63,568 bases of DNA, filler included, from Sluysia triapertura (GCA_046118255.1; 5 parts of 5 records of this genome joined end to end with filler, not necessarily neighbours in it), one strand, 5' to 3'. Numbered from the whole stretch's first letter, positions 7,511-47,890 are shown. Translations and numbers: made by a program. Notes: generated by a model from the sequence alone, not told the origin.

Positions 7511-8150
7511 TGTTGCGTCACCTCTGGTTTCTTTAGATAGATTGTTATGTCCTTAGTACTATTATAAACATTATTGTTAATCTTGTAGTTTTAGAATTGT
7601 TTAGTGGATATTTATAATAATAATAATAATAATAATAATTTTTATTTTATTTTTGTTTAACCAGTAAATTATTGTTATTGATTTGATTTTGAAAACTTAT
7701 TTTGGGATTTAATAATTTGATATATTTATATTTATATAGTGATATAATGAGTACTTAAATTAATGAGGTTCTTTTTAAGCTGATTAAATTGATATTGATT
7801 TATTGTAGCTATTAATTTTCAAAAACGCAAATCAATATCCAATCAAATATAAATTAATTTTATTAAAAACAATGACAAGAAATGATATGATAATTCATAT
7901 GATAAATATGATAATTCATTGTGTCAGTCTAAACTCAAAGTGAATTTAATCTAAAATTAGTATAATTTGTTTATGTTTAAAATTAATTATAAATAGTTAA
8001 TTAATTATAATTAATTATAATTACAAAATAAAGTTAATTATAGTTTAAAATTAATTAATTTTATAGAGTTTATACCTTAAATAAGTACGTTTAAGTAAAG
8101 ATAGATAAACAAATAGTATTATACGACTATAGAGCAAAATTAAGAACATT
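7511..8150 (+). mobile_element. LTR-like repeat family B, upstream of the gag remnant
   Basis: Starts TGTTGCGTCAC. The first ~230 nt align by eye with the minus strand of ~38700-39010 (shared TATAAACATTATTGT, TTTGATTTTGA, TTTGGGAT). Right boundary uncertain. Confidence 0.55.
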
Positions 8151-8161
8151 TTAAAGAATAT

Positions 8162-9160: not shown

Positions 9161-9720
9161 AATAAGAGTGATAAGGGACAAATAAATCAAAAAGATTATA
9201 ATGATAGAAATAATTCATTATCAAATTATTATCAAATTCATTATCAAAAAATTATCGATTGTTTATGTTAGAAATCTGAAAATGTCAAAATTTCTGAATG
9301 TTTAAAAGAAACTTTATCTGTAGCAAAACATTTAAATTAAAAAAATTTTATAATTTTAGTTTTGAAATGATCTAACAGTGCTATTTTAATCTACCAATGG
9401 TTTCTTTGAATTTAAATTTAACAATATTTACTTTAAAATTTAAACATTACTTCAATGATGAATAAATCGATTAAAAAAATCGATAAATAAATTTAAATTT
9501 AGATTTCTTTTGAATTTTATTTAAATGTGACTGCATATATCTTAAATTCTTAAACTAACGAAACAAATTCCGAATTTCCTGAACAATAAATAAATGGTAA
9601 ACAAGAAATTATGCAAGAAATCCCAAAACAAAGTAATCGAATTATTTATTTGTGTATACTTAATTCATTCTTACAATTATTCATTATATTTATGACATCA
9701 AGTCTTTTTAACATCAATTA

Positions 9721-9907
9721 NNNNNNNNNNNNNNNNNNNNNNNNNNNNNNNNNNNNNNNNNNNNNNNNNNNNNNNNNNNNNNNNNNNNNNNNNNNNNNNN
9801 NNNNNNNNNNNNNNNNNNNNNNNNNNNNNNNNNNNNNNNNNNNNNNNNNNNNNNNNNNNNNNNNNNNNNNNNNNNNNNNNNNNNNNNNNNNNNNNNNNNN
9901 NNNNNNN
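9721..9907. other. Assembly gap (187 N), probably a real scaffold gap
   Basis: N run without the internal 12-nt linker. The innexin exons on either side agree in strand, order and phase. Confidence 0.9.
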
Positions 9908-10974
9908 TTAACTTTTACAACAAAAATTACATAAGCATCCCAGAATTCACATAATACATAATATTATCTCAAATCTTAACCATTATAAATGATCTTACAA
10001 TTGGTAAAACACTCAATAAAACCCTTAATCTTTATCACACAATTTAATTTATAAATCTATAATTTTTAGACAATCAAAAAACACCATTTCACACAAGAAA
10101 ATCCACACATTACAGTATTCAATGCATTCACCTAATTAATAAACAGACACCAATAATATACCTAAATTTATGGTTTAATATTACAGAAGGTGAGGTCGTT
10201 ACCGACTTATCATTTATTTGATTATTATTAACTTATCTATTAAGCGACGATTATGGAATTTAAATTTTGAAGAATTAAAATTTAAAACGATGTTACCCGA
10301 TAAATTATGAAGGATGAAAAACAAACAAAGATAACGCATAAAGGTTTTATAGATATAACATTTAATAGTATAAGAGATTGAATCACAAAAAGTAGAATTA
10401 ATAGCAACTCTTACTTTGATTTTTTTGCAATGCGATGAAAGCTGCAGATTTCAATTTGGCTTCTTCTAGTTTGATTCGATGTTTACTTTCACTTGTCTTA
10501 CAGGTTATATAAATTAGCTCTATAATTATTCGTAATTTTAATCATTTCCACAAAGATAAGGAACCATTTTCCTGCAACCAACATTTTTAGATATTTACTA
10601 GACTTAAAGGGTTTCGTTACAGTGTAACTTATAAGTTAATAAATATCAGTAAATACTTTATCTTTAATATCGAAACTAGTAATGTTAAAACTATAAATTC
10701 AAAATACTTTATTACACAAAATCTAGTAAACATTATGTAATTATTGATTTATAAAATAAAGAACAACGATAATTATTTTAGACGTTATAATTAATAAGTT
10801 TATATTATATAGATTTTACCTCTCAATATGTCGAAGGAACTTAACTTTTCTTTTAAAAATAAAGTTTAAATCGATTTTAATTAAAATTAGTAACACCTTA
10901 AAAACAAAACTTACGTTATACAGAGAAATCACTTATTAAAATTTGCAACGATCGTTTTTTCCAAATTGACCAAA

Positions 10975-11260: not shown

Positions 11261-11451
11261 CTTCATAAACACAGTCAAATTCACGAATTCTCACACATCC
11301 CTAACATATACAAGCTCAATTTTTAAGTATAGCATCACATTAATGAATAACTTTGATTATTATTATTATTAATATTATATTACTATTATTAAATCAAATA
11401 AAACAATAAATTTATAAAAACTAATTTAAAATATAAATTTTCAATTCTCAC

Positions 11452-11755
11452 AAATTTTCATTTCTTCTAAAGCTTCCCATTCTTCTTCTGAATTTGGTAA
11501 ATTGGCATTGTCTTTGAACGGTATTGTGCCTTGAACCCAACAATAATTTTCTATATAATTCAATAAATTGTTTCCTTTTTCTCCATTAGAATAATAACAC
11601 GATATAGGCTTAAGAACATACTGTTTAACCGTTACTATTGCAGTTAAAAATAGTAATATAATGACAGTAAATTGAAAATTAATTTTATCTGCAAAATCCT
11701 CAATACCAGCATAACTAGCAACTTGAAATTTTGTTAAATGATCAATAAATTCCAT
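11452..11755 (-). CDS. Innexin, exon 1
   Basis: MEFIDHLTKFQVASYAGIEDFADKINFQFTVIILLFLTAIVTVKQYVLKPISCY...NYIENYCWVQGTIP...EMKI has innexin TM1 and both first-loop cysteines (PISC, NYCWVQGT). 304 nt, phase-1 donor T|GTGAGA. Splicing to exon 2 gives EMKIL-YYQW. Confidence 0.95.
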
Positions 11756-12949
11756 TAGTTATTTGTTGCCCCTTGTGCTTTAGAAATATGATATTTGATT
11801 TTTGCTTATACTATGTGTATTAAGTAAATATTAAATACAATGATTATAAAATTTCTGTAAAATTTTATAAAATAAATAATTTTAAATTTAAATAAGTAAA
11901 TAAATTATATTTTTAAATTAATAATAATTATAATTTGAGTTAATTATTTAAATTTAATTTTTAGCAAATAAAAATGCATATTTTTGGTGCATATTATACT
12001 CTATATAAATACTATATGTTCCATTTTTAAGTATTATAATTAGTGGGCTTATAATGTACATTTTTATTTAATTACATTGCTTTTCTACTTGCATATTATT
12101 ACAATTGCTAATTGTTTTAATATTTAACATACAGTCAGTTATTGATTATTATTACAACATGAGTTCAAATATAAATCCACAAATATAAAAAGTAAATCAC
12201 ATTGTGAGAAGACTTTCTCAAAACAATTTGTAGAATTGGAAATAAAATTAAATAAAACTTTTATAATTTAAAATCAAGAAGCTTAAAAGTTCGAGTATCC
12301 TCAGTATGTAGTATTTCAAAAATGTATTGGATGTAATTGAAAAAGAGAAAATTGTGGAATAATCGAAAGTATCGTAAGAATGTATACTAGAAAGGTCAAA
12401 TAAATGCATACAACCGCATAATCATTAAAAGAAAATACATATATGATTATATTAGGTTAAATTCACATTCCAGCTTGATGAAATAATAACCAATAATAAA
12501 ATAAGATAATTTTTACAAAATATTTAAAATATAAAAAGAATTTCAAATATTACTAATAATAATTTTTCTTTTGATATAAACTCCAGACAAAAATTAACGT
12601 TACTAGTTAAAGAGTCTAATACAAATTCTACGTACTTGAATCATTGTATTAGGCAGCCATATTTGAAACTTTTGCTGAATAATTCAACTGAAGTAGTAAA
12701 TAATTAAACAGATAAACAAATCTTAAAATATACTAAAAATAAAGATGGTAAAGATTGAAATACATTAATTTTTGTAAATTATTGTAATAAATTTTTAATT
12801 TTTGTTAAATAATTTGTAAATTTAATAAGAGTAACAATTTATAATAATAATAATAATTTATTTTAATTATTTATTTTAAAGAAAATTTTAATAAAAAAAT
12901 ATAATCTATCTATTTTAGAAAAGTTTTTAGTTTATTATTACATTTTCTA

Positions 12950-13855: not shown

Positions 13856-13900
13856 TAGTAAGAAAACAGAACAATTTAATTAATAATTTTAATTAATTTA

Positions 13901-14449
13901 ATGAATAATCCTAATTCGACTACTGTAACTTTATGTTTTCATGATAGAAATTTGGCTCCCGACGAATTTTTAAATGATTATGGTTACCCTCTTGGAATTC
14001 ACGATGATATATTAAAAGCTACTATTGTTTATGATATACCCCTTAGTTGTTCTACTCCCAATAATATTATTAAAAATAAAATAGATAAGGATTACTTAAC
14101 CCCTACATTTACGAGTAATAATAATAAATTTGAGAATAACATTACAAATACTGATAATGAACAGCCCGATTATGTAGTGGATTTAAATGACAATCCACAT
14201 ACAGAGACATTAAATAAAGAAACCAATATTCTGAAGAGAAGACTAGGCAGACCAAGAAAAAAAGAGTATAGTGATCAGTTAGTAACTTCTAATTTAGTTA
14301 GTAAGGATATAGTAGATTTAACAAAAATTACTTACGATAGAAACACAACTGAATTAGATACAATAAGTTTAATTTACACCCTACTGTCTGATAAATTTGA
14401 TAACTTCCATAAGATTAAATATTTTTACCTAAGATTATGGATAAAGTAA
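13901..14449 (+). CDS. 182-aa ORF of unknown function with an AT-hook-like motif; probably retroelement-borne
   Basis: Longest ORF in the window. Contains KRRLGRPRKK. Lies between an LTR-like 3' end and an env-like fragment. Confidence 0.4.
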   Translation: MNNPNSTTVTLCFHDRNLAPDEFLNDYGYPLGIHDDILKATIVYDIPLSCSTPNNIIKNKIDKDYLTPTFTSNNNKFENNITNTDNEQPDYVVDLNDNPHTETLNKETNILKRRLGRPRKKEYSDQLVTSNLVSKDIVDLTKITYDRNTTELDTISLIYTLLSDKFDNFHKIKYFYLRLWIK

Positions 14450-14802
14450 CGCAACAATTAGAGGAAAAATGTCGAGATAAGGATATAAGTGAGTATAGAG
14501 ACACAGGGCAATATAAGTTAGTAATAGTAAACAAATTAATATCGGCTTAAATAAAGAGAAACTCAAAATTGTAATTGGTCCTATACTATTTCAATGCGAT
14601 AAGACAAGACTTCTTACTACAGAAAAATGGATATAATGATAAAAAAAAGTTATGGATTGAAAGTCAAAGTGGTTGGAAAAATATAATTAAAGCAAAAGAT
14701 AAATTGGATTCTAACGAAACTTTCAATAGGTTTACAAATATATTAGGAAATAATAACGTATTGAGCAATATAATACCTAGGTTAGATAACTCTACTAATA
14801 AT

Positions 14803-14892
14803 ATGTTGTTTGTAATTATTTTACTTGCTGTATTCGGTATAAATAAGACAAGTGAAATTAAAGCATTTGACTGTAGTAGACCACGAATATGA
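14803..14892 (+). mobile_element. N-terminus of an envelope-like glycoprotein (signal peptide plus AFDC motif), truncated
   Basis: MLFVIILLAVFGINKTSEIKAFDCSRPRI* is a hydrophobic signal followed by [A/G][F/Y]DCxxP, as at the start of chuvirus/gB-like Env proteins. It is the end of ORF 14575-14892 and is followed by a 25-nt tandem duplication (~14910-14960). Confidence 0.5.
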
Positions 14893-15529
14893 AGGCAATT
14901 TCGAGCCAAAACGTAATAAAATAAGGATTATGCCAACGTAATAAAATAAGGATTATGCCAACTCCTAAAATAATGTCGGATATATCAGTGTATTCATTAG
15001 AAGAGTCCGACCAACTGAATTTAATTACATTTATAGTTGTTATAATTAATAATAAAAATTAATTAAATACTTCCTCTGGTTAAAATTGATTAAACTATTA
15101 ATACTAATACTGTGCATCAAATTATTTAAATGTGAAATTAGAAACATGAAAAAAGGAATAAGTACAAATACTAATGTAAGATTGTTAGTTATTAAGAAAT
15201 TACTACCTTTATTAGTTTGAATCATAATAATTTCATCAGCTAATTATGAAAACACTTTTAGGTCAGAATATTTCGAATTTCATAATTCAGATAGTGAAGT
15301 AAGAGTTAAAGTTTTGGATAATAATATTCGTGCAAAGTTTACTTGTCTTAGACCGTCGAGGCTTAATTTCAGTATTTGGATAATTCATGAATTACTTATA
15401 AATAATGTAATACATTCTTTTACATTTTGTTCAGATTTACTACCAACAAATGCACTTTTGTCAATTTTATATCTAAAAATGATTTACAAAACTTTGAAAG
15501 CTTAAATCATAATGTTGGACTTCATAAAA

Positions 15530-15601
15530 TGGACTGACCGGAGATCGAACCCGGGACACTTCGCTGTGCAGTTCGATTCTCTACCACTGAGCTATCAGCC
15601 C
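15530..15601 (-). tRNA. tRNA-like (Ala- or Cys-derived) pseudo-tRNA within a dispersed repeat
   Basis: GGGCTGA TA GCTC AGTGGTA GAGA ATCGAACTGCACAGCGAA GTGTC CCGGG TTCGATC TCCGG TCAGTCC A, then TTTT. Has a 7-bp acceptor stem with G3:U70, A and B boxes and a T arm. The anticodon stem pairs poorly. Confidence 0.75.
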
Positions 15602-19422: not shown

Positions 19423-19568
19423 CTAAAATTATAAATAATAAATTATTTTATTTATAACAAACAAAGAATGTTTATTCTGCATATTAATTCTTTAATATTT
19501 TAATTTATCATTACAATTATTTTCATTAATTACTATTTTAAATTATAAAACTATATTAAATAACTTAC

Positions 19569-19763
19569 CATTTCTTTAGCTTGGCACAATAAATCTGCCA
19601 TAACCATTCGGCCTTCGGCATCAGTGTTTCCAACACGCACACGAACATTAGCACGTGAGGTTATAATTTCATCAGCAACATACGATGAAGAGCCAAAACT
19701 ATTACGTACATAAGCTAATAATCCAACGACTTTAATTTTTTTCGGCTTTAATAATGATAATGC
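19569..19763 (-). CDS. M17 leucyl aminopeptidase, catalytic exon
   Basis: attcag|ALSLLKPKKIKVVGLLAYVRNSFGSSSYVADEIITSRANVRVRVGNTDAEGRMVMADLLCQAKEM|gtaagt. NTDAEGR is the cytosol aminopeptidase signature. 195 nt. Confidence 0.97.
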
Positions 19764-21689
19764 CTGAATAATTATGAAAATTTTAAAAACTATTTCTAAT
19801 TAACTTATAAAAATACAACTAAAAATAAATTAATTAATTATAAAATATTAAATTAATAAATTAATGTTCTTATATCATAAAATAAAAAATATAATTTCAA
19901 ACATAAAAATAATCTAAAATACCTTAGTAATTTTACAAGAAATATCTTAAGATTAACTATAATCAAAATAAATGATACAAATAAAAAGAGAGCGTAAATT
20001 TAAATTCACCATATTTAATTATCAAATCAAAAAGTATGGATCAAATATTAGTGTCAAAAAAACTGTGCCGAAATGAAATCAAGCAAAAACCAACAAATAA
20101 AAGTAAAATAGACGAATACGAATGCATATATAAAAATTATAATTAAATAAATATTACACTAGAAATTAAATAACACATAAATGAAATTTCCTATACTATA
20201 ATGATATATTTTATATTTTAACTATAGTAAAAAACAGTATAAAAATGACATCACAAAATTATTAAAAAACCAGACCGGATTTATTTAAAAATTCTTTTAT
20301 TACCGCTACTATTACCACATTTTGAAATTATCGGAGTTTTATATTAAATTTTTTTATCGAGTATTATTAAAAATAACAGTAAAAGCAGACAATTATTTTA
20401 ATAGGATTTAACTACTTATATCCAACGCGTATTTTTACATTGAATTAATATTATAAAGTATAAATTTCAACATTTATTCTCGAAATTGAATTTAACTGAT
20501 AAATGAACTATTATTCATTCGCTAAATATTTACTATTCTGGCCAACCTCATTTGTTTTTTCATTATTATTCTTTCATCTAAAATCACTTATTTAATTATG
20601 TTTTATCCCAATAACTGTACTATTATTGTACTGTTAATTGTAATTATATTGTTATTACATTTTTATAAATCTTAGCTACTGGATTAGTTTAAAGATTTAA
20701 ATTCGGCTTTCCATCAAAAACAATAAAAGCTGATATAGATAAAACTAACCCTCATGTGAAATAAAAGTTACGCATCAAATTTTAAAGTCAAATATCTTTG
20801 CTAAAAGGAAATAAATGTGCACTGAATTAAACGAATCAACTGCATTAAGCTTTTTTTAAGTTAATCTGTTATGTAAGGGAAGATGAAAACAAAACTTTAT
20901 TGTGAGTATTATATTATTAATGTAATATGTAAATAATTAATATAATTATTGATTAATTTAATAATGCAAATAATTTTAATTTAATTTCGGAAAGTACTAA
21001 TTGTAAAAATACAATTAACTATTTCGTTCAATCTAATTTTAATTTATATTTAACATTAATCATCTCGATTTTATAATTTATCTGATACGAATAATTAATA
21101 TAATTGATTTTCCTAATTAACACAAATAAATAATATAATTTGATCGACATACGAATATAATCTTCAAAAAGCTCACACAACAAAGGAAAAAATTCCTAAA
21201 AACAAGTTTCACTTTATTGAATAGAAATCTTTCTCTGGAAAATTTACTGTCGATTTTGGCTAAAAAACCACCAACTAGATATAAATTTAAATTCTTCGAA
21301 ACAAAGAAAAATCTATTAATCTTTTTGAAATTCCAATTTTACAAGTTATCAGAAAGCTTTATTCACTCTCTTCTTATTTGGAATTTTCATGATTATGTCT
21401 CAGAATAAGTAAGCTTATTGTCAATAGGCTAAGAATTAATATTTTTTGCTTTAAAATCTAGGTAAAATCATCATTAAATTAAAAAATCAAAGCATTCGCC
21501 TGGATCAAAATCATTATTAAAATTATATTTTTATTATTCGAAGGAACAATCCTCGATAATTAATAATTGATATTTTATAATTAATATACATTTTTGTTTG
21601 TATATATTTTTTTCTGTAACGAATAAATTTATACATATTGTTAATTCTTTTCATTGAAAGTATCAAAAGTAGATTTAGAATAGAAAGAT

Positions 21690-21960
21690 ATACATAATAA
21701 GAAAAATAAAAGTAAGGATTGTAAAAAGGTAGTTAAATTGACATACACGAGTAAAGAGTACATAACTTTAAAAGTAAAGTGGTAGTTGTTAATCCGTAAT
21801 TGTAAGATAAGGTACAAGAAAGTAAAAATACTGACCCTTGTTAACTACATTGCTGCAAGATTTAAGGTATTCCTGATTTGCCTGTAAATACGTCTTTCTC
21901 TTAATATAAATCGTATGTCACAGGTGGACCCGTACGATTTAATAATTTCACAATTGTTCA
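21690..21960 (+). mobile_element. LTR-like repeat fragment (family C) in a LAP intron
   Basis: Resembles 13550-13855, including the CAGGTGGACCC and AATTGTTC motifs. Confidence 0.45.
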
Positions 21961-23247
21961 GAATTAAAAGAGATTCGAACATTAACACAATATATTAAAA
22001 GACTTGTACATTTCTGCATCATAAAGATAAGAATTAACTTTCGTTTCTGAAATTAAACATTTTGAAACTAATTTCACCAGGAATAAGAATGTTTGACTTT
22101 TCTTCAGAAAATTTGTTAAAGATGTAAAATAATTGTCTGTAGTAACATTGTAATTTTTAAAAGTGATCCTGGTAAATCTTTCTATGTACTTCTTCCATCA
22201 TCAGTTTTTTATCGACTAATATGTAGCACGTAAGTAATACATTAATTGGTTTCATCATCAAAAATGATCCAAAATTTCATTCCATCTATGTCTAGTCTTG
22301 ATGAAATGTATTAAATCAATTGCAATATAAGGTAGTAAATATTCATTAATTTGCAAGTCTTGAATATGATTAATCGCAAAATAATTATATAAGAGAATTA
22401 ATACAAAACTTTTATCTTTTACTCTATAAGATTTGCTTTCCATATCGTCAATGTGATATATTGTAATGTATCGATAAATCTTTTACGTGACTTTGTCTTT
22501 CTAAATATTTAACTTCCAATCACTGTGCTTTACAATTATGATATCCCAAAATTTCTCTACAATAGACAAATTAAATACACTTTTCATATCAAGGACAGAA
22601 GTCTTCAATGATCATATTTTTCAATATGTTTACATACTTAAAAAAATCTTCAAGCATTTTAAACCTTTTTAAAGCTGTTTCAACAGAATATATTCATTTT
22701 CAAAAAGATATGAAACTAGATCATTCATTGAAAATATATTACAAATATGTATGAAACCAAGTTAAATAAATTCAACGTTTTTGTGAGAAAAGTAATATTC
22801 ATGTGAATCATAATGTAAAGTTATACTAAAATGTTCTGCTTTAATCAGAAATACATAAATCGTATAACGTTTGCATTATAGATACATCATTCATAAATTT
22901 GTGAACATCGATCAATTTTTCTTGTTCTAAATCAGAATATGAAATACCATTTATAGCAATCTTTTTTATTTTAAATTTCTTGCACATTAAAACAAAAAAT
23001 CAATAAAGATAACATATGCAAACAAAGAAGCTCTGAAAACAATCTTAATGACATTATTCTACTTATTTTCCAATGGCATTTCAATATGAAATGAATTATG
23101 CATAACATTTTGACTTTGATTATGAATAATTAATTTTACTTAACCAATTCATAAATTGTTTACATTTTTAATATAAATTTTAACTTGAATATAAAAAAAC
23201 GTTTTCAGCATTACATTTGACTAAATATATATATAAAGAAAAAATAC

Positions 23248-23438
23248 TTTGAAAAAACCCGTAATAGCTGCAGCACCGCATTTATCTCTATGCATACCAG
23301 CCATAATACCACCAGCTTTTACATCGGCTCCCCCAGTATCAAAAGTGATGCCTTTACCAACTAAGAATATAGTCTCATCGACAGCATCATTAGAATCATA
23401 TTCCAAGTTTATGACGACACCGTTATGTCTTTCAACAT
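23248..23438 (-). CDS. M17 leucyl aminopeptidase, first exon found (5' exons not found before the contig ends at 25563)
   Basis: aactag|xVERHNGVVINLEYDSNDAVDETIFLVGKGITFDTGGADVKAGGIMAGMHRDKCGAAAITGFFK|gtattt. Metal-binding K and D residues (GKGITFDTGG, RDKCGAA) are intact. Confidence 0.96.
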
Positions 23439-25146
23439 CTAGTTTTTATGCAATAACATTAATTATTTATTGATAATTATAATAAAAAATTGTAACAAAA
23501 TTATAGTACATTTCAAATTTAAAACTGAAAATGTGAATTTTAATTTATTTGTTTGTTAAACAAACTTAAAATAGTAGATAATTCTTGAACAGAATATTAT
23601 TTGATAATCACTTTATATAAACAGACAAATAATTCAATATATTACTACCTAACGTCCCAACATCCGAAAGACTAACGTTTTCGATCTTAAGAATTGGATA
23701 TAAAAATAAGATATGGAAAATAATAATGAATTTAATATAATGTAATAAAATTTATAATTTTATAAAATATTGACTGCATTAAAAGATTTTTATGGACATA
23801 ATCACATTTTTCAGTTTACTTAAAAATTTAAGTTTCAAAACAAATATTAAATCTACAAAAATCTATTAATTATATTAAATATTGATCCAAAATCTTAAAT
23901 ATCTTAATTTAGTCTCAAAAATGTTTAAACAGAATTTATTTAATACTTAAATAAGTTTTTATATATAATTAGTATATTCTATTATTTATATGTTTCATAT
24001 AAGATAACGTTGAAATAAATGGAAATGTGCCTGAGAAATGGCAGATGAAATAAGAGATTTCACTTAAAAAGTTCTAACATTTGACTAATTAATTTGTGTT
24101 TTCCAATGTTTCTATGGTTATACATAAGATGCTTGCTTGGTTTTTCCTTCACTTTTGATTCAAAGTGATTTATTGATGCCTACATTATTCACCAGTCCTG
24201 ATGGTTCCAATAACTCATGATGCATACCAAGTACAGAATGACCTTCATTTTCCTCTGATTCTGTCAGCTGACCTAATTTCTCTTTGATGGAGCAACATCA
24301 AAAACAAACACTAGTATACAACATTTTTCAAACAGATTTTTGATAAAATATTGTAATAAAATGAACAATATTTAAAAGTTATAAATTTTTAAACATTCAA
24401 ATGAAAATATTACTTCTTGCATTATTACAGACAATAAATTCAACATTGACTTATGACTCACCATATAATACTCATTTTTTACTAACTCTCTAATTATTTT
24501 AACATCTAAACTATAAACTAATTTTGTTTACGCACTTAAAAGAATATTTATAGGATTGTGCAATTTTATAATAAACACTTAAAATTTCATATTACGTGTT
24601 TAATTTTAAGTGTTTATGAAATTACATAACCCTGTAAATTGTTTCAAATAATCCATTAAAACTTAATTTTGAAATCCTACAAAAAACAGTGTACATGAGA
24701 AAGCTATAGCAGGTAAAATATCAAGTGTTGTTGCTTCAACTAATACTGTGGATTACTTGTCACCCTTAATTGTATCACACAATAATGCTAAAATATATAA
24801 AATCGTATTTTCATTCATACGTAATTGCCAAGAGCAAGAAAATAACTTGATACTCTCAGAAGAAATATACATTTTGATCGTGTTATGGCCGAACAAAGGT
24901 CGTGACTAATAATGAAGTTTTTTGCTTTTCAAATTGAAAATAAAATCTTAAATGAATATTTTGTTGCCCAACAATCAAAGTTTAATCTTTCGTAATATTA
25001 GGTAAACTGAGCTGACCGAAATTAATGTGACAATAATTTTGATGTAAGAGCATGAAACAAATAAGAATCTTATATTTTACAAAATACTCGGCCAATCAAG
25101 AATACAAACAGCGTAGCGTATAACATACTGCATGTTCGTCTTATAA

Positions 25147-28479: not shown

Positions 28480-29049
28480 AGTATGACAAGAAATGACTTA
28501 TTTATTCATAATGCCGAAATAGTCCAATTGCAATTATATGCTTGATAAAAAATCCAATTAAATCGTTAATACCACTAATTGCAACAATTTTAGATCATTT
28601 TGGTGTATTTAATTGGAAGAATTTATTCGGTGTTAATACTCTCGATGTCGTTCGTGCTATTCGTATTATATCTCTCGAAGAAATTGAAGCCGCGTGCAAA
28701 TATTAACAATATTGATGTAAACAATTCTAGAGGCTAAAGAAGGATACGATGAATCTACACTCAGTATGGCATGGACAGGATACCGTTTTATTGGATCGAT
28801 ATTAGCAGCGACGGATGGATTATTGGGAGTAACTGAAGTATCTTTTGTCAAGTCAAATGATATTTATTATGTGAATTATTTTCTACACCATTATTGATTG
28901 GGAAAGAAGGCATTATTCAAAGTCTGGGTATTGGTCAGTTGACAGAATATGAAATGGTTATGCTTGAAGCTGCCGTATCGATTTTGAAACTTGATATTGA
29001 AGTTGGTAAGCGATATGCTCAAAGCTATCTTCAGAAACTAAACAGCTGA
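28480..29049 (+). pseudogene. Mitochondrial malate dehydrogenase (MDH2-like) intronless pseudogene with internal deletions
   Basis: Pieces: MTRNDLFIHNAE; SPIAIICLIKNPIKSLIPLIATILDHFGVFNWKNLFGVNTLDVVRAIRIIS; ILEAKEGYDESTLSMAWTGYRFIGSILAATDGLLGVTEVSFVKSND; TPLLIGKEGIIQSLGIGQLTEYEMVMLEAAVSILKLDIEVGKRYA...*. These are colinear with MDH2 (MTRDDLF, NPVNS, FGVTTLD.VRA, SATLSMA, FSTPLLLG). Frameshifted, and the catalytic GGH segment is missing. Confidence 0.9.
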
Positions 29050-30914
29050 AATTAAATTATTTATAAATGAATTAGTATAAATAAAATATTAAATTTTTAT
29101 GAAATATTTTTAGATTCCTATACGTAATAATACATAATAATTTTATATATATATGGAAATGAAAAAAATCAATTAACGTTGTAAATGAAATGTTAAATAG
29201 AAATGATTTCAGTATTTTGATAAAAGAATCATTTAATGCTTTTAGTTTTATTTCGTGTGTCGTTAAAAATTTCTACAAGGAAATTACATCCAAATACAAT
29301 GTCATTTATTTAAAGTTAACTCTTAAATTTATATTCCTGGCCAGTTTTGCAGTATTATTGACTATAACTTTGACTTAACTCTAAGATTTATATTTTATTT
29401 TTCAATTATAGTTACATACTTTTTCACTCCATTTATCAAGAAAACAAACGAAATAAAAAATTTGGACTTCATTATGGTGTTGTTTTATTATTTATTTTAT
29501 TATATACGCTATCGAAAGTAATTAATGTTTCAATTTATTATGAATTTTTCCCTTTCCTTTCAGTAAATTTTATCTTGTTTTGTATCACCAGTCTTAGTTT
29601 TAATTTACTAATAAGTATATTTATCATATCATACGGATTCATATTATTCGAGGCACGTTTATTATGGCTAGAGACATTTTTATCTGAATAACAAAAAATA
29701 GATATTAATTTAAAATATTCAACCTATGCAACGTATAATATAGTTCAATTGTCAAATTTCGATGATTTTGGAAACGCGTCATCCGAATACTCACTCGGTG
29801 TGACTTGTACCTGCCACCAACTTTTTTCAATTATCATAAGTATGATTATATGTGTTTTTACAACATTTTATTGTTTTCTTAATAAACTTTTAAACTTTGT
29901 TGATATTTTGTTAATTTTTATCTTTAAGAGGCCTTAAAACTAGTTTATTAATTAAGAAGTTTATTATTGTGTTAATTTTTTTAAAGTTAAAATTAAATTG
30001 TTTTGTGTTAGGCAAATTCTTTAACTTTTCTAATTTAAATTTTAAAATAAAAAATTAAATATTTATAATAAATTTCTAAAAGAAAAAGCCCTCCCCACAC
30101 TTACGGTTGACGCACAACGTATTAATGAAGAATACTCTTGTGAGAAATAGATTTATTATTTAATAAATTTTATCGTTAAATTAAGTTGACAAATTACGTT
30201 ATTAGTATAATAGCAATGTAACAATGATTTTAAATTTTAATTAGGTGATATTAAGAAGATAAGGTGATTGTTTATCACAAATCCCATTATCTTTAGATAA
30301 TTAAAATGAGATTGAATTTGAACATAGACTAGAATTGCTGCCGAGATTCATTCAGTAAAATTAGTCGGCTTATTACCGACTAAAAGAGAATAGACAGCTT
30401 TAACTTCCGTCTTGTTCACTTTCTGATTTTTAATTTCCTAAAAGCATTATAAACTGCTATATAAGCAGTTACATTTTTGCATAAAGTTAAAAAAGTAAAG
30501 AGATAGAGCTAAGAATTAAGAAGATTAAAGAAAACTTTCTAGCTGTAGGGACTCTGCTTCAGTTCATCATTGGATAACAGTGGAACTGAAATTATTTCTT
30601 TAGCACTCATTTAAAATTAAATAGTTTAGTATAAAGTAGGAATTAAAGTTAGTGAATTATTTTGTATTGATTATATTTTATATTAATACGAGTGCGTAAA
30701 TTTAAATAAGCTTATGATTTGTTTTCAAAACATAATTTACTTTATTGAAAAAATAATTTATATTGATATTGCTATAAAGAATAATTTATATCTTTTAGTT
30801 GTAATTTTGTGATAATTCAAAAAATATGTCGAGATTCTGAATTTGTTTAATCATTGAGTTTTAAATGATAATTTGTAAAATAAAAAAGTAAAAAGACACA
30901 ACAATACAAATTCA

Positions 30915-31950
30915 ACAGCATCTATCTGAACCAACCCCAATCCTACATGGAGTCAAACAGGGTTATCCGTTGTCCATGACGCTATTCTGTTTAGCAGTAT
31001 ATTTCTTGTTTCGACAACTCACCGACAGTGATACAATAAAAGTGAACAACCTGAACTTCCCTCCATACTTCCACATGCTAATGATATTGCTGTTATCAGC
31101 ACTAGCCTAGACAAACTGCAACATACTATCAATAAAATTATCGAATGTGCAAAATCCGCGAACTTGATTTTCCAAATGTTACTACTATAACAACGTTCAA
31201 TTCACTCTCTTCTGACTGGGAAGTTCCTATCCCCGCGTCAAGACAACGAAGCAGACACTTTATCTTGGCATCCCTTTTGGTGACATCAAACGCCAGTCCA
31301 GTGACGATCTATTGAATGAAAATATCAAGTTCACTGAATTAATAGGTCAATCGAACATGTATCGAAACTTTATTCAATTCCGACTCCTATTTCATCTGCG
31401 GAACCTGTATGTCAACGTTCAGATATTGAGAATGATTCATCCCATTCGCTGTGATGAAATATTTTGTGAAATACTGAAACAATATCTTCGTATCAGAAAC
31501 TATTCTCTAAACAGAAGCTTCTTCCGGGCACACAAAAACCATGGCGGACTTGGCTTAACCTCGGCGTACGACGACTACATGTGCATTCCACCTACTCAAC
31601 AGCCACATTCCCATTATATGCACTCTGGCTCATCACGAGGTCATAAAAGCAACCAATATCTCAATGAATAAAAGCATCGAAACCATAGCCCAAACACTAT
31701 GGCTCAATGGAGAACCTGTGGACAAACGTGCCAGACTACAAACCTGGTGGTCTAAGAACCACATTTCAATCAAGAACCTAGACGGAAATACAAAATCAAA
31801 GCTTCATTTGTCTACTCCAACGATTCCAATGATGTCCAGCTATCACTACAATCAGACATCCTCATAGTTAACCCCATCATTATTAGCTAATACCCCAAAA
31901 ACAAAATTGGCAAGTACCTCCATGAGTTAATTAGTACTTGCATTACGCAC
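30915..31950 (+). mobile_element. Non-LTR retrotransposon (LINE) reverse transcriptase fragment, degenerate
   Basis: SEPTPILHGVKQGYPLSMTLFCLAV (RT GVxQGxPLS), PHANDIAVIS (decayed YADD), YLGIPFG, and FFRAHKNHGGLGLTS (thumb GGLG). Frameshifted. Right boundary approximate. Confidence 0.88.
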
Positions 31951-35612: not shown

Positions 35613-35686
35613 GGGCTGATAGCTCAGTGGTAGAGCAATCGAACTGCGCAGCGATGGTCCTAAGTTCGAGATCCCTCGTCAGTCCA
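35613..35686 (+). tRNA. tRNA-like (Ala- or Cys-derived) pseudo-tRNA, second copy
   Basis: GGGCTGATAGCTCAGTGGTAGAGCAATCGAACTGCGCAGCGATGGTCCTAAGTTCGAGATCCCTCGTCAGTCCA, then TTTT. Same acceptor stem and flanks as 15530-15601; the T arm is degraded. Confidence 0.7.
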
Positions 35687-39431: not shown

Positions 39432-41759
39432 TTAATAATGTTAAAATCGCCTAATTAGCAGCAAATTATCTTCAATGTTATCACAATCTTCCATCAATTA
39501 GTAAAAAATTTGTATCACTATTGAAAATTCTTGTTAGTTGCTAGTACTATTTATACTATCGCGAAATTTTTAGTCTGATATATAATTATATTTATTTTGA
39601 TCAATAATTAATAATCATAATTTGTAATTTATAACATATTTCAATTCAATATAATATAATATTTACGAACTATTCTGATACATTAATTACAATTATTTGG
39701 ATTAATATTAATCTTAATTTGTAGTTTATAACATGTTATTTCAATATTTACTAACTACACAATAATAAATACTAGTTGTGATACATAATTTATAACGTTA
39801 TACAAATCACAATAAATACGATGTTAATTCAGTTCTACTATATAATAAATGAAATAGTTATTCTTAGTATGAATATTGTGATACTTAATCATGTTGGGTG
39901 GATGAACATTTTAAACATTTTTTGGGATTTTGATAAGTGGAACATTTTTGATTATATTTAATTAGAATATTATTTATAAAGCAACATATTTGTTGCTATA
40001 ATTATTTGATTTAAATATTATTTTTGATTTAAGTATTATTTGTATTATAAAAAAATTAAAAGTATAGAAAATTAATATGAAAATTTTGATTGGTAGTATA
40101 ACTAATTTTATTTTGTTTTAATGGATTATTATCGAAAATATCAACATTGTTTTAATGGATTATTATATCAACACTAAGTGCCTATATGGCGGATTTTAAT
40201 ATATAAACAAAATCTGGTATTACAAGATTTTTATTAACAATTATCGCAGTTTTTCAAGATGACATCCATGGTTCGGTAAAGTTCTTTTATTTAAGTTTTC
40301 TACAACTCTAATTTTAATTTAAGAGTTTCTTAAAATCCGACTCAAAATATATTAATATTTCCTGGATCGTAAAAATGCTATGTAAAGGTAAATCCAAAAC
40401 CTCAGCCTAAGAGATATTTCTTAAGGCCTAAAATCGTCATCATTATAATTATTCTTATTTTATTTTAAACATTGCATAATTATGGTAATATATTTATTAT
40501 GATTTGTTTTGAAATTTAACTTGAAATTGCTACATTTAGACAAATTTATTAATAGAATTAATTTATTTAAGCCTGATAACATTAGGAAATTTTGATTTAA
40601 TTATATCAATTTTAACTTTATGATTTACCAAACAAATGCAAAAATAAACACTTACTTGATTTATTTTACAAAAATTTTTAATTATATTTAGGTTTTGTTG
40701 TGGTCTAATCATTTTCTGAGTATGCCTGGCCATATAGAAAATTGAGGTCCTAAAAAAGGAAAATAATGTAAAAATCTAAATCGATTTATATAAGAGTGAG
40801 TAAAACTAAAATCTAATATTACTTCAAAGTTCTGTTGGTTTCTCCAGTCTACTGGTGATGATGTCATGCTTAATAATAAGGTACTGATCCTACGATGATG
40901 ATCATTGAGAAACTAAACAGGTTTCTAATTTCAAAGGCTTCGTGACCATAGATACAATTTCTGCCATATCGGGAACATTCACCATTCTGCATTCTTCCAT
41001 ATCATGTTTATAATATTTGCATTGATGAGCTTTTTTAGGCGAAGATATGTTGTTACTATATTAACGTTTTACATTGTCAGTCTTTACTTTTGTCATGTTT
41101 TTTACTAATGGTATAATTTTATTTGTGATCACATTGATAGGGACATGTATACTGTTATCTATTTTCATCACGATATAAATTGAAGCATTAAGATGGTTGG
41201 TATTGAATCGTTTTATTTGAAAGTCATGAGATATTGCAGTGAATTTTCTTATATCATCTTGTTTTGCGTTTTGTTTGTCTACTAATTTTAACATACAATT
41301 TGAAGGCAAAGTGCGAATTTCGATTCTATAATTTGTTCTTTAACGAATTCTAATATTTTAAATTCTAATCGATCGAATTGTACAATTAGCACTAATTTTA
41401 ACGAATTATAATCCTGTTAAGTTTGGTGCTGCTTGGTTGGACAATGGACAATACAACAGAATTTAACATTTATAATTAACAATCATTCTTAAATAATTTG
41501 TTTAACAATTATTTAATTTTATCTTTAATTGAAATATTAATTAACAATTATTTTATTATTTGAAGAAAGTTGAAAAAACAATTACTTTTATTTTTATTTA
41601 TTCAAAAATTTTTATTTGAAATATTAACAATTATTTTATTTTTATTTGAAAAAACAATTACTTTTATTTTTATTCAAGAAATTATTTTATCAACACTGCA
41701 ATAAAATCCAATATTCTTAAATAGAAATATTAAACTAATAATTTATTTAAATAAACTAA

Positions 41760-42490
41760 TTAATGAAAATTTTGTTCTAACGAAACAATTTCAAGATGGA
41801 GAATCGAAAAAGAGTATAAATAAATAAAATTTTAAATTAAAAGAGAAGTTTTTAGGAAATAAATCGAAAGTAGAAGAGTTCCAGAACCAATTTTTTGAAA
41901 TAAAATTTATTGTCAATGTCCATGCAGAAGTAATTTTTATAAAATTTCTAATTTTAAAATAATAGGGATTCTAAAATACTCACGTCACTTAATTTTTGCA
42001 TTTTCACCTAGACCGTAACTGGCTAGGTCAACTTTTGATAAAATCAGATAATTTTCAAACATCAACTAAGCCATAAGCTTAAGTTGACAAATTCGGTATT
42101 GATATTATAATAGTTCTCATTGTTTATTATATCATTGGTATACATATATAAGTTTTTTGTACACTAAAAGAATAGAAGTTAGTACTTGTTTTTTATTATT
42201 TGTAACAATTAAAATAATTTAAAATTTGACCAGACCCCTAAAAAGGCTGGTTTAAAGCCAAAAATAATTAAAATTTGACCAGACCGTAAAAAGGCTGGTT
42301 AACTAGTATTTCTCTTGTTGATCATTTACGGCAATTAGTAAATCTACTCCTTTAACTAGATATCAACGTCTACCAGCATAATTACCCCATTGCCTCAGCT
42401 AATTCTTCTAAGACTCAAATCTAATTAGAGTGTCTTCATTTTGATATAAATCATGCCTGATTAGTCGGACGGACTTACAGAGGCATTTTG
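41760..42490 (+). mobile_element. LTR-like repeat family D, left copy
   Basis: Colinear diverged blocks shared with 44750-45495: TCCATGC, TTTTCACYTAGAYCGTAACTGGCTARGTYAACTT, AGACCGTAAAAGGCT, TCTTCTAA, GGAC..., ATTTTGC. Ends approximate. Confidence 0.65.
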
Positions 42491-43284
42491 CATTTTAAGA
42501 GAAAATCTTGTAATCCAAAAATTCACGTTTAGGTAGCATAGTTTCCATAAACAATTTCTTTATGCGGAAATAAATTCAAAAATAGATATAAGTTCTTAAA
42601 AGTATCACCGTAAACTTCTAATTTTTTACAACAGTGTTAAGTATTATACTCTAAATATTCAGTTTAATACAATTTCAATAAACCGTAAAGTAGAATTATC
42701 TAATAAACACAATTAAATTTTAATTGTAAATTGTAAAATTAATTTGTTACTGTGAAATTAAAAGTTATTTTTATTTTTTGAGATTACTATGATGATTGGA
42801 CGTGATTGGATAGCCAATCAAGCAACAAGTGTACAAAATACTATTTTTACTCTGTAAATAATAAGTAATGAAAGTAAGTCAGTCCATGATTGGGCGTCCA
42901 GTGAGATGAGGCAAAACATAAAACAGAAAGACAATTAATTGGACGTCCAATCAATTGAAATAATCGACTTAGTAACTGTCACCAGTTGACAGTTTAATAT
43001 AATATAGTAACTTAGTTTAATGAACAGTCAACTGTTGAAGACCAAACTAAATAAATTAATTTGTAAAAAGATAATAATATATAATATTAATGGTAAATAA
43101 TACTGTTAAATAATAATAATTTTAGTGAATAAAATATAATAATAGTAACAAAAAAAACAAAAATAAAAACATAAATTTCATCTTTTATTTCTTATATTGT
43201 GAAGACGATCTTCCTTTTAATTATTCTGTTTCTAGACATTTAAATTCCTTAAAAAATGATTTATAATGTAATAAGTGTAATAAT

Positions 43285-43458
43285 TGTGATAATTGTAATA
43301 AATACGGGCACTCTACAAGAAACTTCGTAAAGTTAAAACAGAATATGTTTAGTCAGGATATCCCTAAAGTAAGGGGCCCTCAACAACAAAGATATCAAAG
43401 CCCTAATAGGAAAGTAAGGTTTAATGATAATAAAAACGACAATTATAAAATCAAATAG
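43285..43458 (+). mobile_element. gag C-terminal fragment (zinc knuckle), same family as 8162-9160
   Basis: CDNCNKYGHSTRNFVKLKQNMFSQDIPKVRGPQQQRYQSPNRKVRFNDN compared with CDNCN*K*HYARDCRKLRQEVFTQDFTKVCGP*QQRYQNSNRKVSFNDN at 9014-9160. Confidence 0.85.
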
Positions 43459-43606
43459 ATTACAATGAATATGAAGATCAATACCAATATAGAGAAGAAT
43501 ATGAAGAACCTAGAAGAAACAGGAAGCATAACTAGGAACAAAGATGAGAATTTAGTAGCGAAAAAGATGAATACTGAAAATTAATAACAGATGAAGAAAA
43601 TAATGC

Positions 43607-44095
43607 ATGGTAGGAGAATTTCATATCACTGGATTAGATTGTGATATAAATCGATTTAAGGACACTTAGGTTTGTCCTGAATCAAAACCAGAGTTAGAAT
43701 AAAAGACATGAAAATATTAAATGTTTACAAGGAAGGAAATTTAATCACAGCTTTGGTTAGAGAATGTTTAGTCAAAAGATCTATAGTCATATGGTATTGT
43801 GGACAGCATAGCCATTCATCAATTATTGATATTTCTAATGTATTAAAACCATTTAAGATATTACCCAATAATTGTCGTGATGCTTTCGAAACTGGATACA
43901 TAAATCTAAATGAGAGATAAACTTAAAATTAAAAATAATGCAAAATTAATTTATAATGTAAGAACCCCAGGTACTTGCGAAAGGGGTTCAATAGTGTACG
44001 AAGGGAAAATTTATAATAATGTAGTGGCGCAAGAAACATATGTTGTAAGTTTAAAATCCTTCAATTAAAGTTTCGATCTAGAAAAGGAACAATGA
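43607..44095 (+). mobile_element. Degenerate envelope glycoprotein fragment, chuvirus-G/herpes-gB-like (class III fusion) type
   Basis: MVGEFHITGLD...VCPESKPE; MKILNVYKEGNLITALVRECLVKRSIVIWYCGQHSHSSIIDISNVLKPFKILPNNCRDAFETGYINL; after a +1 shift LKIKNNAKLIYNVRTPGTCERGSIVYEGKIYNNVVAQETYVVSLKSF. The order C-x9-YCGxHSHxS, CRxxxETG, GxC...NVVxQ matches chuvirus-type glycoproteins as I recall them. Confidence 0.75.
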
Positions 44096-44749
44096 TGTCG
44101 CGACCATTTTGTAAAAGTAATCAAACGTTAATATTCAACAAAATTTTCCTTAGTAAACACAATAAAAATACGATTCTCAAAATTAAACTTGTAATCGAAA
44201 ATTTATGCTCTAGAAATGTCTATAAATAATTCAAAAAATGATTCACAAAATAACGTAATTAATGACTTGTTCTAATTTCATAAATACTTATTAACACTAT
44301 TTATATTATTTACTTATTTCGCGTTGGCATTAAAACATTGATACATGACTAATTTGTGCGTGATACTAGATATGATTAATTTTTGCTAAACTACTTTTGA
44401 ATTTGTACTTGATAATAAGATTTTAGTAATCCTTTAATATAATTATTAACATAATAATTATTAATATAAGATAATTTCTTTTAATAATATAATTATATAA
44501 TACAGTGAGATCGTAATTTAACATTAACATGTACTTGTGAATTTAACATTAACACTTTATTTTTACTTGGTATTACATTTATTTTATTGGTTTTATTATA
44601 ATTATTTTATTATTGGTATTAAATTATTTATTTTTATTATACTTAACAAATATAACAAATTAAATAAATAAACTTAAATTTTATTTATAAAAATTTAATA
44701 AATTAAATCAATTAAGTTTAATAAATTAAATTAAATTGTTAAATTAAAA

Positions 44750-45495
44750 AATGAGTTTTGTTTAAATGGATTATTTTTCAAAATATAGGACAATAAAGCA
44801 ATATTTTGTATATAAGAATGACAAAATTTTCAACAAACCATAGAGCAAAACAATATCAAAAAATCATCACAGAAAAATCCATTCAATTTTTTATATGTTC
44901 CATGCTAAAATAAGATTTTGTTTAATAAGTTTTACATTCTCACCGTAACCGGGAGAATTAAAATCTACTTCAAATATTTAATTTATTTTCACTTAGATCG
45001 TAACTGGCTAAGTTAACTTCTATATAAACTTTATTGCACTAAATCAATAAGAATTAAGTGATAAAAGTGAGTATCATTATTATATTGTACAAAATTCCTT
45101 CTTGGTCTTTGATAATATACATTCTAAGAGTTTGTGATTGTTTATTAAATAATAAAATATCATTTATTATCGCTAGACCGTAATAGGCTAGCTAAATATT
45201 ATAAAATATAAAGAAAGTTTTTACAATTAGACCGTAAAAGGCTAATTTAAAATACTGTTTATTTAAAGTTTATTTAATACTGTAAAAAGGCTAATTCAAA
45301 ATATATAAATTATAATTAATTTGAATAGCTAGTGGGTATTGCTAACGAGATTAATAACACAATAAAAGTATTCTCGTAATACGTGACTCTTCTAAAATCG
45401 AATTACATTACTTCTTAAAAGCCTAATAGACCGCCTTCGACCAGATACAAGACGTTTCTGTTAGGTGGACTCGCCTCAAAAGTTATATTTTGCAA
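44750..45495 (+). mobile_element. LTR-like repeat family D, right copy
   Basis: Diverged direct repeat of 41760-42490. Carries five bulged-A hairpins (one degenerate) and the AGGTGGACTCG motif at ~45463. Confidence 0.65.
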
Positions 45496-47014
45496 GTAGA
45501 TAAGATTAAAATCTTCGCAATACTTTTAATAAAGTTAATAATTAATATAATACAATAATAATTGAGATATTAAAATACTAAACTAATAAGTTAAAAACCA
45601 TTTTCTTTATTACATAATTACAATTTATATTATTTACATATGCATATACATTAGTAATTTTATGATAACTATTTGAATTTATTACCATTCAGAATAAAAA
45701 TATAACAGATAAAAAACCACTAATACATTTAGGTAATAAAATCAAAATTATATTATAAAAAATTAACATATAAGATCAATTGGAAAAAACTATAAAATCA
45801 AAAGACCACCAATTTAATTTTAGTGGTTGTTTTGTATTTTTTATGATTATTTGGTTTAATGATAATGGGCAATATATATTGCAAAGTGTGTGGGTTTGCT
45901 AAGAGTTTTAAGAACCATTCTTTATAATTACAAAACAAATTGAAATAACGTTTATTTAATTTCGAATAACTTATAATTACATAATTAAAATGCATTGTCT
46001 CTAAATTGTAAAAATAGTCAGATGTATAATTTTTAATTAATATTAAGATAACCTTAGACAGTTTCATAACAGTATTAATAAACAATGGGATAATGAAAAA
46101 ATAAGACAATAGAAATTTATAAAGGTAAAATATATAACACAAAGAATGAAAATTGTAAATTCTTACACAAAATACTTGAATCTGAAGCAAAGTCAACACA
46201 TGTTCAAGATCAGACCACGTTAAAGTCGAGAAACAGCAATGAATCAGTTAGATGTTGGATGCTAGATAGTAGTTCCTTAATCATGACGTTTTCGTTACCG
46301 ATACAATATACTGACGCATTTATTTTGTCTGATAGAGAATGACCAGTCGATAACCTGGATGAATTTGTTTTAGTGAGGTAACCTAAATTTGTCGATGCCT
46401 ATTTCTTTCGTTATTGATGTGCCTTTGATTGGGCAGTTGACTTTATCTAGGTTTACATTATTATACATAAGGATTGATTTGCCTTTACTAAATATAAACA
46501 TGACTTGATCTACGTTTACATTGTTAAACATCAAGATTGCTTTATCTTTATTTACATTAATAAATAGAAATAACTTTATCGTGAAGTTTAAAACTCAGTT
46601 TTTACTTCGTCGACATGAACAATTCCTAAGATAAAAAAGAATTATTCAAGCCACACAAAGTATTTCCAAATCCTCTATGGATAATCCTTTTATTTGCTGA
46701 TAGAATATTTGTTCAGAAATTGTTTTAACTACTATTTTAATTACACCAATACAAGAAATTTTGTTTTGAGTAATCTCTATAAGTGAATCAAATTTGCAAC
46801 ATTTTACGTTGCGGTATGTTAGAAAGTTATTAAAATTTTATTAGTATTATTATTATCCTGCAATTATTTTTCATTAATTGAGCAATATGTGGTTGGTACA
46901 GTGTTGCTAGCATTTGCTAGAGAATTACTTTAAAAGTGTAACAATGGTTTTAACTGCAAAACCTGTTAATAAGCAATGCTTCAGAGAGTTATTAAGATTG
47001 TTAAATTCATTTCA

Positions 47015-47890
47015 TTTAAAATGTTCTTTTAATTGCAACAGACGAAATTTAGATAAACATTGAACTAAAGCTGTTTTAATGATTCCTTTCAACAGTTTTG
47101 GTTCAACTATTTTAAACAATTGATCACGCCCGAATTAAGTCAGAACCAAGTCGGACAATAACTTTTTTAACTTATTTTTCGTGAGAATATTGTTTAATGT
47201 TTGCATGCATCGGTTCTCAATTCGATATGAAATATCAATAAATTCTTAATGTATGGTTTAAATGTCCTTTTCTGGCGTCGCTGATAAGCCCAAAACTCGA
47301 AATAAACATTGTTAAAATTTACCAGTTAATAAACGTATTACTTGATAAAAAGCATGATTTACAGTTGCTGTGAACCTCATCCGAAACTCTAAAGACAATA
47401 TCTTCACTAGGAAAAATTAACTATTACTTAATCAAAACTATTACTTAATACTTGAGCAGTTAAAAAGAAAACACGTTATATATATCCATAAATGAGTTCA
47501 TGAAACAACTGCAATAGAACCAATCATTTCAACTATTTCTGATGAATTTATTGATAAACAATATTGGCATGCTACCATTTGTTGATGTACCAATGGTGTA
47601 GTTGGAGCAACAATTATCAATTTACCTTTGGATATCAACGGTAAAAGTTAAACATAGAGATTGTTTCAAATTTGTTGATAAACAAATCGGAGTGTTTCTG
47701 AATAGACGTTGTTGAACAATTTGAAGTTGATAATTACGAATCATTTAATGAATAATCACATGTCTTTATTTGGTCATGATTATTTTCAGTTATTGGATAA
47801 GCAAGTGGTTTTTAGCGATGGTCCCGTTGAGGGCTCAATTGTTTTATTGTTTACTTGCACACTATTATCAAATAAAGTTGTTTGTTTCAT
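47015..47890 (-). pseudogene. FANCM: FANCM/Mph1 DEAH-helicase intronless pseudogene (N-terminal part)
   Basis: Minus strand with stops and shifts: MKQTTLFD...; IRNYQLQIVQQRLFRNTPICLSTNL; SMFNFYR*YP/GKLIIVAPTTPLVHQQMVACQ...IVEMIGS...HLW...FLLTAQVLSN; VSDEVH/ATVNHAFYQVIRLL...FRVLGLSATPEKDI; IKNLLIFHIELRTD; NIKQYSHENKL/KVIVRLGSDL; LSKFRLLQLKEHFK. These are colinear with FANCM (QxTLF N-terminal PIP-like motif, RDYQ, YNFYRWFP.GK...APTKPLV.QQ, DEAH, LSATPG, NL.I..IELR). Walker A GKT is deleted. Confidence 0.92.

Follow-up and report, generated by a model that had tools for sequence, protein, structure and literature searches.

Two non-coding repeat units in the DNA of Sluysia triapertura (GCA_046118255.1) carry an array of small hairpins, each with a single bulged A two base pairs below a short loop, whose stems vary in sequence and nevertheless stay paired. 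The units lie on either side of a broken gag-env remnant in a stretch of 63,568 nucleotides that joins parts of five records of this genome with filler (hereafter the window; positions are counted from its first letter). This hairpin array is real and apparently undescribed. It is probably a cis-acting RNA signal, i.e., a putative protein-docking element, of retrotransposons resembling the Burro giant gypsy elements of planarians, which carry env in frame between gag and pol (PMC6431247, in its accessible part). We put at about even the chance that the array sits near the promoter-side non-coding end of such an enveloped element and serves as the docking site of a protein that the element encodes and that picks its genomic RNA for packaging or export.

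The hairpins were sought with a scan that demands a bulged A, a two-pair neck (CC, TC or CT against GG), a 4-9-nt loop and five or more base pairs in the outer stem. It returned seven intact copies in 41900-45400, all on the + strand and none on the - strand. A first-pass annotation of this DNA had listed these seven and an eighth, degenerate one, and its coordinates, stems, loops and closing GG all agree with what we find:

42006..42028, + strand: hairpin, array position 2 of the left unit, with 6 bp, a bulged A, 2 bp and a 6-nt loop
42228..42252, + strand: hairpin, array position 4 of the left unit, with a variant 8-nt loop
42275..42302, + strand: hairpin, array position 5 of the left unit, with 8 bp including one G-U and a 7-nt loop
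44936..44958, + strand: hairpin, array position 1 of the right unit, with the most divergent stem
44991..45013, + strand: hairpin, array position 2 of the right unit, with one inner U-G pair private to this copy
45172..45192, + strand: hairpin, array position 3 of the right unit, with 5 bp
45225..45247, + strand: hairpin, array position 4 of the right unit
45274..45296, + strand: degenerate hairpin, array position 5 of the right unit, whose 5' arm no longer pairs

In all seven intact copies, two base pairs separate the bulged A from the loop, and the stem is free in sequence. Their loops measure 6-8 nt and begin with G in six copies and with C in one, and this first G could pair with a C or U at the other end of the loop, or form a sheared pair with an A there; the 44936 copy can form a third G-C pair, which leaves UAAC as the loop. 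The degenerate copy (core 45279-45290) has kept the loop, the GG and the 3' arm and lost the paired 5' arm (stem 0).

Such a density of hairpins is far above the chance level. Dinucleotide shuffles of 41900-45400 (n=500) contained 0.16 hairpins on average and 2 at most, compared with the 7 observed, and the same scan of the remaining 60 kb of the window gave one match on the + strand and two on the - strand. To guard against circularity, we also picked sites by the motif A[CT][CT]GTAA-N1-4-GG alone, i.e., with stems ignored. Among the 13 matches in the window, stems measure 5-8 bp at all six + strand sites where a C precedes GTAA and 0-1 bp at the remaining seven, and the background frequency of a 5-bp stem is 1.2-1.8%.

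Pairing was then counted in the five copies with 6-nt loops; the two with longer loops were misplaced by MAFFT and left out. In these five, 39 of 40 cells are paired and five of eight pairs have changed on both sides, a covariation score that none of 500 shuffles reached, and slid-partner controls were only 13-58% paired. One stem position shows four pair types, and the double change from C-G to T-A that had been reported at first pass for 42006 versus 44991 is present. These values come from few sequences that are related through duplication, and 7 of 42 swapped arm pairs likewise pair in five of five positions. The earlier observation that the outer stem changes freely while its pairing persists is thus borne out by the counts: the hairpin is conserved in structure rather than in sequence. 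Six of the seven copies fold well in context (pair probability 0.82-1.0), whereas the 44991 copy folds poorly (0.13). A covariance model built from the same five copies, with those at 42228 and 42275 outside the training set, recovered both of these when run over the 63.6 kb, at E 0.0025 for 42275 and E 0.64 for 42228. An AT-rich match at 42716 (E 0.077, 8% GC) ranks between these two, and the scan of the window found no additional convincing copy.

The hairpins and the weak TATA-like sites upstream of them are organized in two units:

41790..42560 (limits approximate), + strand: left non-coding repeat unit, subfamily A, with a TATA-like site, three intact hairpins and a downstream block
44785..45580 (limits approximate), + strand: right non-coding repeat unit, subfamily B, with a TATA-like site, four intact hairpins and a degenerate one, and a downstream block
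41815..41820, + strand: TATA-like hexamer, weak, 197 nt 5' of the first intact bulge
44809..44815, + strand: TATA-like site, weak, 188 nt 5' of the position-2 bulge

The first-pass annotation had described the hairpins as lying in repeats that flank the remnant. Related, collinear units are indeed there (41790-42520 and 44785-45520), each ~0.8 kb as far as seen and identical at 449 of 683 aligned columns (~66%, z 7.8), and multi-kb twin long terminal repeats (LTRs) were not seen around the remnant. Twin LTRs are identical upon insertion. Because the units are only ~66% identical, and decay on this scale would break the stems, we take them to be two diverged subfamily copies and not both LTRs of one insertion. 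They share the order of a TATA-like site, positions 1-2, a gap, positions 3-5, ~140 nt and a conserved block, with positions 1 and 3 missing from the left unit as judged by eye. Hairpin pitches are 55, 54, 48 and 49 nt; the distance from position 2 to position 4 is 222 nt in the left unit versus 234 nt in the right one, that from position 4 to position 5 is 49 versus 48 nt, and the spacers between hairpins are little conserved. Since two units that are 66% alike keep this order and a similar spacing, we place the double changes between lineages and take them as a sign of selection; they would have been fixed while these lineages were active.

A search of sequencing runs for the region matched one run, X1, which is possibly the window's own source and gives no independent support; no RNA run was among those listed. 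From X1, 4,396 contigs align to 41500-46000 at a level of at least 80%. Their summed depth, which according to the tool's own warning is no copy number, amounts to 1,082-3,126 over the hairpins, 7,777-9,947 over the downstream blocks and 35,565-59,579 over env, and it drops past ~42556; two contigs identical to the locus have a depth of 17-20. Among the 12 indels listed of 211, those in hairpins sit in loops or spacers, and the loops of the 45172 and 45225 hairpins are one base longer in 30 contigs and one base shorter in 16, respectively. Of the 15 joints listed out of 81, seven lead, in other copies, from the last hairpins into the downstream block, and one contig shows an extra hairpin repeat, i.e., a local duplication. 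Both units represent a single non-coding module, conserved and present in many copies, and its adjacency to the remnant (at most 1.3 kb on both sides), its strand and its absence elsewhere in the window suggest that it belongs to a Burro-like element.

The module ends with the conserved block, found ~140 nt past the last hairpin:

42410..42520, + strand: downstream conserved block, left copy, with a predicted hairpin that has a GGAC-containing loop
45408..45520, + strand: downstream conserved block, right copy, with a bin depth of 7,777

The left copy is 68% identical to the right one (z 5.0) and folds with a z of -1.7; its contig depth of 9,947 compares with 1,117-3,126 over the hairpins. At one site of the right copy (45408-45520) the window departs from 120 contigs. 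Both copies can fold into a hairpin whose loop contains GGAC, an alternative stem that shares one strand is visible by eye, and no structure common to the two blocks was predicted. We also considered the block as a primer-binding site and dropped this idea: the right copy matches the complement of a tRNA-like 3' end at 12 of 18 positions, and the controls were not beaten. Between the left unit and gag, 42790-43040 holds repeated ATTGGAC/GCGT motifs at raised contig depth as well as two short inverted repeats (42932-42957 and 42979-43038), and could represent part of a promoter or a small element inserted there.

Between the units lie the remains of coding sequence:

43057..43487, + strand: gag C-terminal remnant with a decayed zinc knuckle, broken by stops and frameshifts
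43620..44130, + strand: broken and truncated N-terminal part of a fusion glycoprotein (env) of the mononegavirus type

This gag-env remnant had been proposed at first pass, and it is real: env (start 43620 judged by eye, 43681-44127 by profile) matches PF24664 at E 7.3e-8 over profile positions 50-206, its relatives are env-bearing gypsy polyproteins, and every hairpin copy in the window lies on its sense strand. The zinc-knuckle match is weak (E 0.005, under the curated cut-off), and the gag remnant aligns with a second one at 8776-9224. With env as query, a search of 1.84 billion proteins gave nine matches at 28-42% identity, eight of which carry PF24664; one match, P0006, is an unrelated repeat protein and was dropped. 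Env is in frame between gag and pol in P0002, P0004, P0007 and P0010, with the layouts gag knuckle-env-protease (P0002) and env-PR-RT-RH-IN (P0007 and P0010). P0010, a member of the P0004 cluster with 4,844 residues, adds ankyrin repeats, and P0001 has a weak Bcl-2 match before env (E 0.001, below the cut-off). Because the gag-env-pol layout of these relatives is that of Burro as given in the accessible part of PMC6431247, we read the remnant as Burro-like. In the window, the gag knuckle is followed by env on one strand with broken frames and without pol; Bcl-2, SUMO, BIR and ankyrin domains were not found in this remnant. The gap between knuckle and env is ~150 nt here versus ~600 residues in P0002, suggesting a copy that is internally deleted or of a shorter kind.

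Several further observations concern Burro-like sequences. P0001, P0002, P0004, P0007 and P0010 are gag-env-pol polyproteins with several protease copies on ENA contigs of 16-31 kb, and with them the host range of Burro-like elements may prove wider than described. Two more Burro-like remnants lie on the + strand of the window, one with the gag capsid plus knuckle (8140-9220) and one with a linker, the env signal peptide and the first env residues (13880-14900). A candidate second env piece at 40850-41460 found no support in the profile search.

Which strand and which molecule the hairpins act in had been argued at first pass from their G:U pairs, taken to favour an RNA of the + strand. Three such pairs are present: two occupy one position in a pair of near-identical sister hairpins, and the third occurs in the 44991 copy alone, where 47 contigs carry a standard pair. 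They amount to about one independent event and are weak evidence, and as RNA the minus strand folds equally well or better in three of the seven copies. G:T pairs are tolerated in single-stranded DNA, and as DNA both strands fold about equally; of four longer segments, three have the lower energy on the + strand. A stronger point in favour of the + strand is that the adjoining gag and env are encoded on it.

An Rfam 15 scan of 41500-45800 gave no match at the gathering score and one sub-threshold match on the minus strand (E 0.89), in line with the first-pass statement that the hairpin was not recognized as a described motif. A search of phage DNA yielded short, weak matches only, and an Atlas search gave none. 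In the literature, at the level of titles and the first parts of abstracts, the hairpin is without a description; it may be mentioned in the original Burro paper, in the supplements of PMC6431247 or in Repbase. The accessible part of PMC11410931 mentions Burro once and has no hairpins.

The window itself has ~24% GC and short exons. Its innexin exon matched flatworm proteins in 31 of 31 cases (46-64% identity), all from parasitic flatworms and none listed from a triclad. Host exons lie among the intervals 206-641, 2305-2610, 11441-11758, 19551-23445, 28512-29049 and 46646-47647, where Pfam identifies a Ras-family GTPase and the innexin, and where leucine-aminopeptidase-like, malate-dehydrogenase-like and FANCM-like helicase sequences (the last with a weak DEAD match, E 0.095) are seen by eye. 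Two related tRNA-like sequences (15530-15601 on the - strand and 35613-35686 on the + strand) pass Rfam and fail ARAGORN, and are probably heads of tRNA-derived short interspersed nuclear elements. Fragments at 30892-31867 resemble a decayed non-LTR reverse transcriptase (RVT_1, E 0.03).

How the array might work can be outlined as follows. The hairpins would be a repeated RNA signal in the LTR R/U5 or 5' leader of a multi-copy Burro-like gypsy element, and the window would contain this end twice, as copies from two diverged subfamilies with an internally deleted piece of gag-env between them. On the RNA, every hairpin would offer a fixed surface made of a flipped-out A, two C-G pairs and a loop starting with GUAA, on a stem that need only pair and whose sequence is free. 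A fixed surface on a freely paired stem is the signature of a protein-recognized hairpin, and repetition at a fixed pitch suggests binding of several protein copies; up to five sites at a pitch of ~50 nt could accommodate several copies of one element-encoded RNA-binding protein. The likeliest reader would be the Gag zinc knuckle, picking genomic RNA for packaging, with an export role of the Rev/Rex type as a close second.

A number of results weigh against this proposal. The link between the units and a Burro-like element is drawn from adjacency in one window plus strand, there are no hairpins near the Burro-like remnants at 8140-9220 and 13880-14900, and among the joints listed none convincingly ties a hairpin unit to gag or env. 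TATA-like sites are common in this AT-rich DNA and hence weak (four hexamers in 920 nt on the left and five in 920 nt on the right), no purine run adjoins either unit, and no primer-binding site was recognized: the best candidate matches the tRNA-like 3' ends at hand, which are not the host tRNA set, at 12 of 18 positions compared with 10-11 of 18 in controls. The folding energy of the hairpins shows no preference for the + strand. Pattern searches outside the window also gave no Burro-like locus. A two-hairpin pattern matched one viral and ten metagenome loci, none of them an array with outer stems and none with Burro-like protein matches; the viral locus and nine of the ten metagenome loci have no 4-bp outer stem at the core, and L005 has one copy with 4 bp. 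A one-hairpin pattern matched 12 viral loci with a single match each, again none Burro-like. We regard the matches to both patterns as tandem repeats or coincidences of codons. The searched collections appear to hold little flatworm DNA, so that these negatives would say little on other planarians.

Some of these outside loci deserve a comment of their own. L001, L006, L009 and L010 represent a 19-nt tandem repeat of a giant virus and were rejected as hairpin arrays; at L001 (5001-5150) this repeat is intergenic, has a GACCGTAACCGG core and no outer stem, and is unrelated as far as tested. L015, L019, L020 and L024 have one match in common, which we dismissed as a codon coincidence: in the three with frames listed it is antisense to a conserved stretch of a polymerase, presumably of the mito/narnavirus type.

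The same array could also be read by a host or accessory protein instead of Gag and act in elongation, export, translation or stability, in the manner of TAR/Tat, RxRE/Rex or PCE, which we regard as rather unlikely. GNRA-like folds with extruded bases are read by arginine-rich peptides, and the GUAA start of loops of 5-8 nt may make such a fold. The hairpins lie 130-470 nt 3' of collinear TATA-like sites in both units, and Burro polyproteins have many accessory domains (PMC6431247, accessible part); however, TATA-like hexamers are frequent here, and start site, transcript and protein are all putative.

An unlikely alternative takes the units out of the Burro-like element altogether and sees them as a separate non-autonomous repeat, of the rolling-circle/HUH type or from another LTR family, with hairpins that act in single-stranded DNA or in an RNA of their own; two copies would then have come to lie beside a Burro fragment by chance. 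HUH transposases do read bulged DNA hairpins, and our hairpins fold as DNA about equally on both strands; their contig depth is also far under that of env, with no joint listed that would tie the two. Yet a single remnant has both units at most 1.3 kb away and on its sense strand, the 63.6 kb contain no others, neither terminal repeats nor a transposase were seen at them, and faster divergence of non-coding ends relative to env would cut the depth at the 80% cut-off. Units that belonged to another repeat would still carry an undescribed structured motif, though of narrower interest. Finally, the array might be a functionless by-product, i.e., a palindrome amplified via tandem duplication, as the pitch of 48-55 nt (suggestive of an old tandem repeat), the local duplication in one contig and the decayed positions (the 45274 copy, and positions 1 and 3 of the left unit) would have it. 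We consider this very improbable because duplication copies sequence and makes no compensatory changes, whereas here double changes have preserved the pairing of the stems, four kinds of pair occur at one position, and the spacers show little conservation.

The proposed signal of a Burro-like element would bear on a part of retrotransposon biology that the accessible part of PMC6431247 does not address, i.e., how elements of ~30 kb that make up a major part of planarian genomes have their RNA selected, exported and packaged. A covarying motif also gives a means to locate the ends of such elements in flatworm assemblies and to map their subfamilies, and it supplies a short RNA that binding assays and reporters could use. 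The window shares with Burro, as far as the accessible text of PMC6431247 describes it, the order of a gag knuckle and a mononegavirus-like env on one strand, a flatworm host and many copies, and the nearest protein relatives have Bcl-2, env, PR, RT, RH, IN and ankyrin in Burro order. In contrast, the window copy is a broken 1-kb fragment with no Bcl-2/SUMO part and no pol, around which no multi-kb twin LTRs like those of the ~30-kb Burro elements were seen, and that text does not describe a hairpin array.

Retroviral LTRs and leaders offer RNA signals such as HIV TAR, HTLV RxRE, HERV-K RcRE, SNV PCE and the MLV Psi stem-loops. Like these, the array is a structured RNA candidate in the non-coding end of a retroelement that plausibly binds several protein copies; unlike them, it repeats one small motif with varying stems, has no sequence or Rfam match, and comes from a flatworm gypsy element instead of a vertebrate retrovirus. 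The lambda/P22 boxB and Csy4 hairpins have GNRA-like loops and no bulged A, and belong to bacterial or phage systems. Our hairpins resemble them in the CC-G...-GG closure around a purine-rich, odd-sized loop, which is probably convergent, and differ in carrying the bulged A.

A further comparison is with the MS2 coat-protein operator, which has a sequence-free lower stem, a single bulged A, two pairs and a 4-nt A-N-Y-A loop. Its geometry had been invoked for these hairpins at first pass, and the free lower stem, the bulged A, the two pairs and a short loop are indeed common to both. The likeness is one of geometry only: the loops of the array have 6-8 nt and start with GUAA instead of following the 4-nt A-N-Y-A consensus, the inner pairs are C-G and C-G, up to five copies form a natural array, and the setting is eukaryotic. 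No Pfam match to leviviral coat or replicase genes was found in the frames scanned around the locus. The array would work like an operator or packaging array, and it lies outside the MS2 operator family. If a dedicated protein reads it, it would be a eukaryotic counterpart of the MS2 operator. We tentatively add the bolder idea, rather unlikely in our view, that giant enveloped gypsy elements of flatworms independently evolved MS2-like tagging, in which up to five operator-style hairpins at a fixed pitch, read by a protein of the element, would select a ~30-kb genome for packaging into enveloped particles; Burro would then have its first defined signal for packaging or export, and the array would be the source of a new orthogonal RNA-protein pair.

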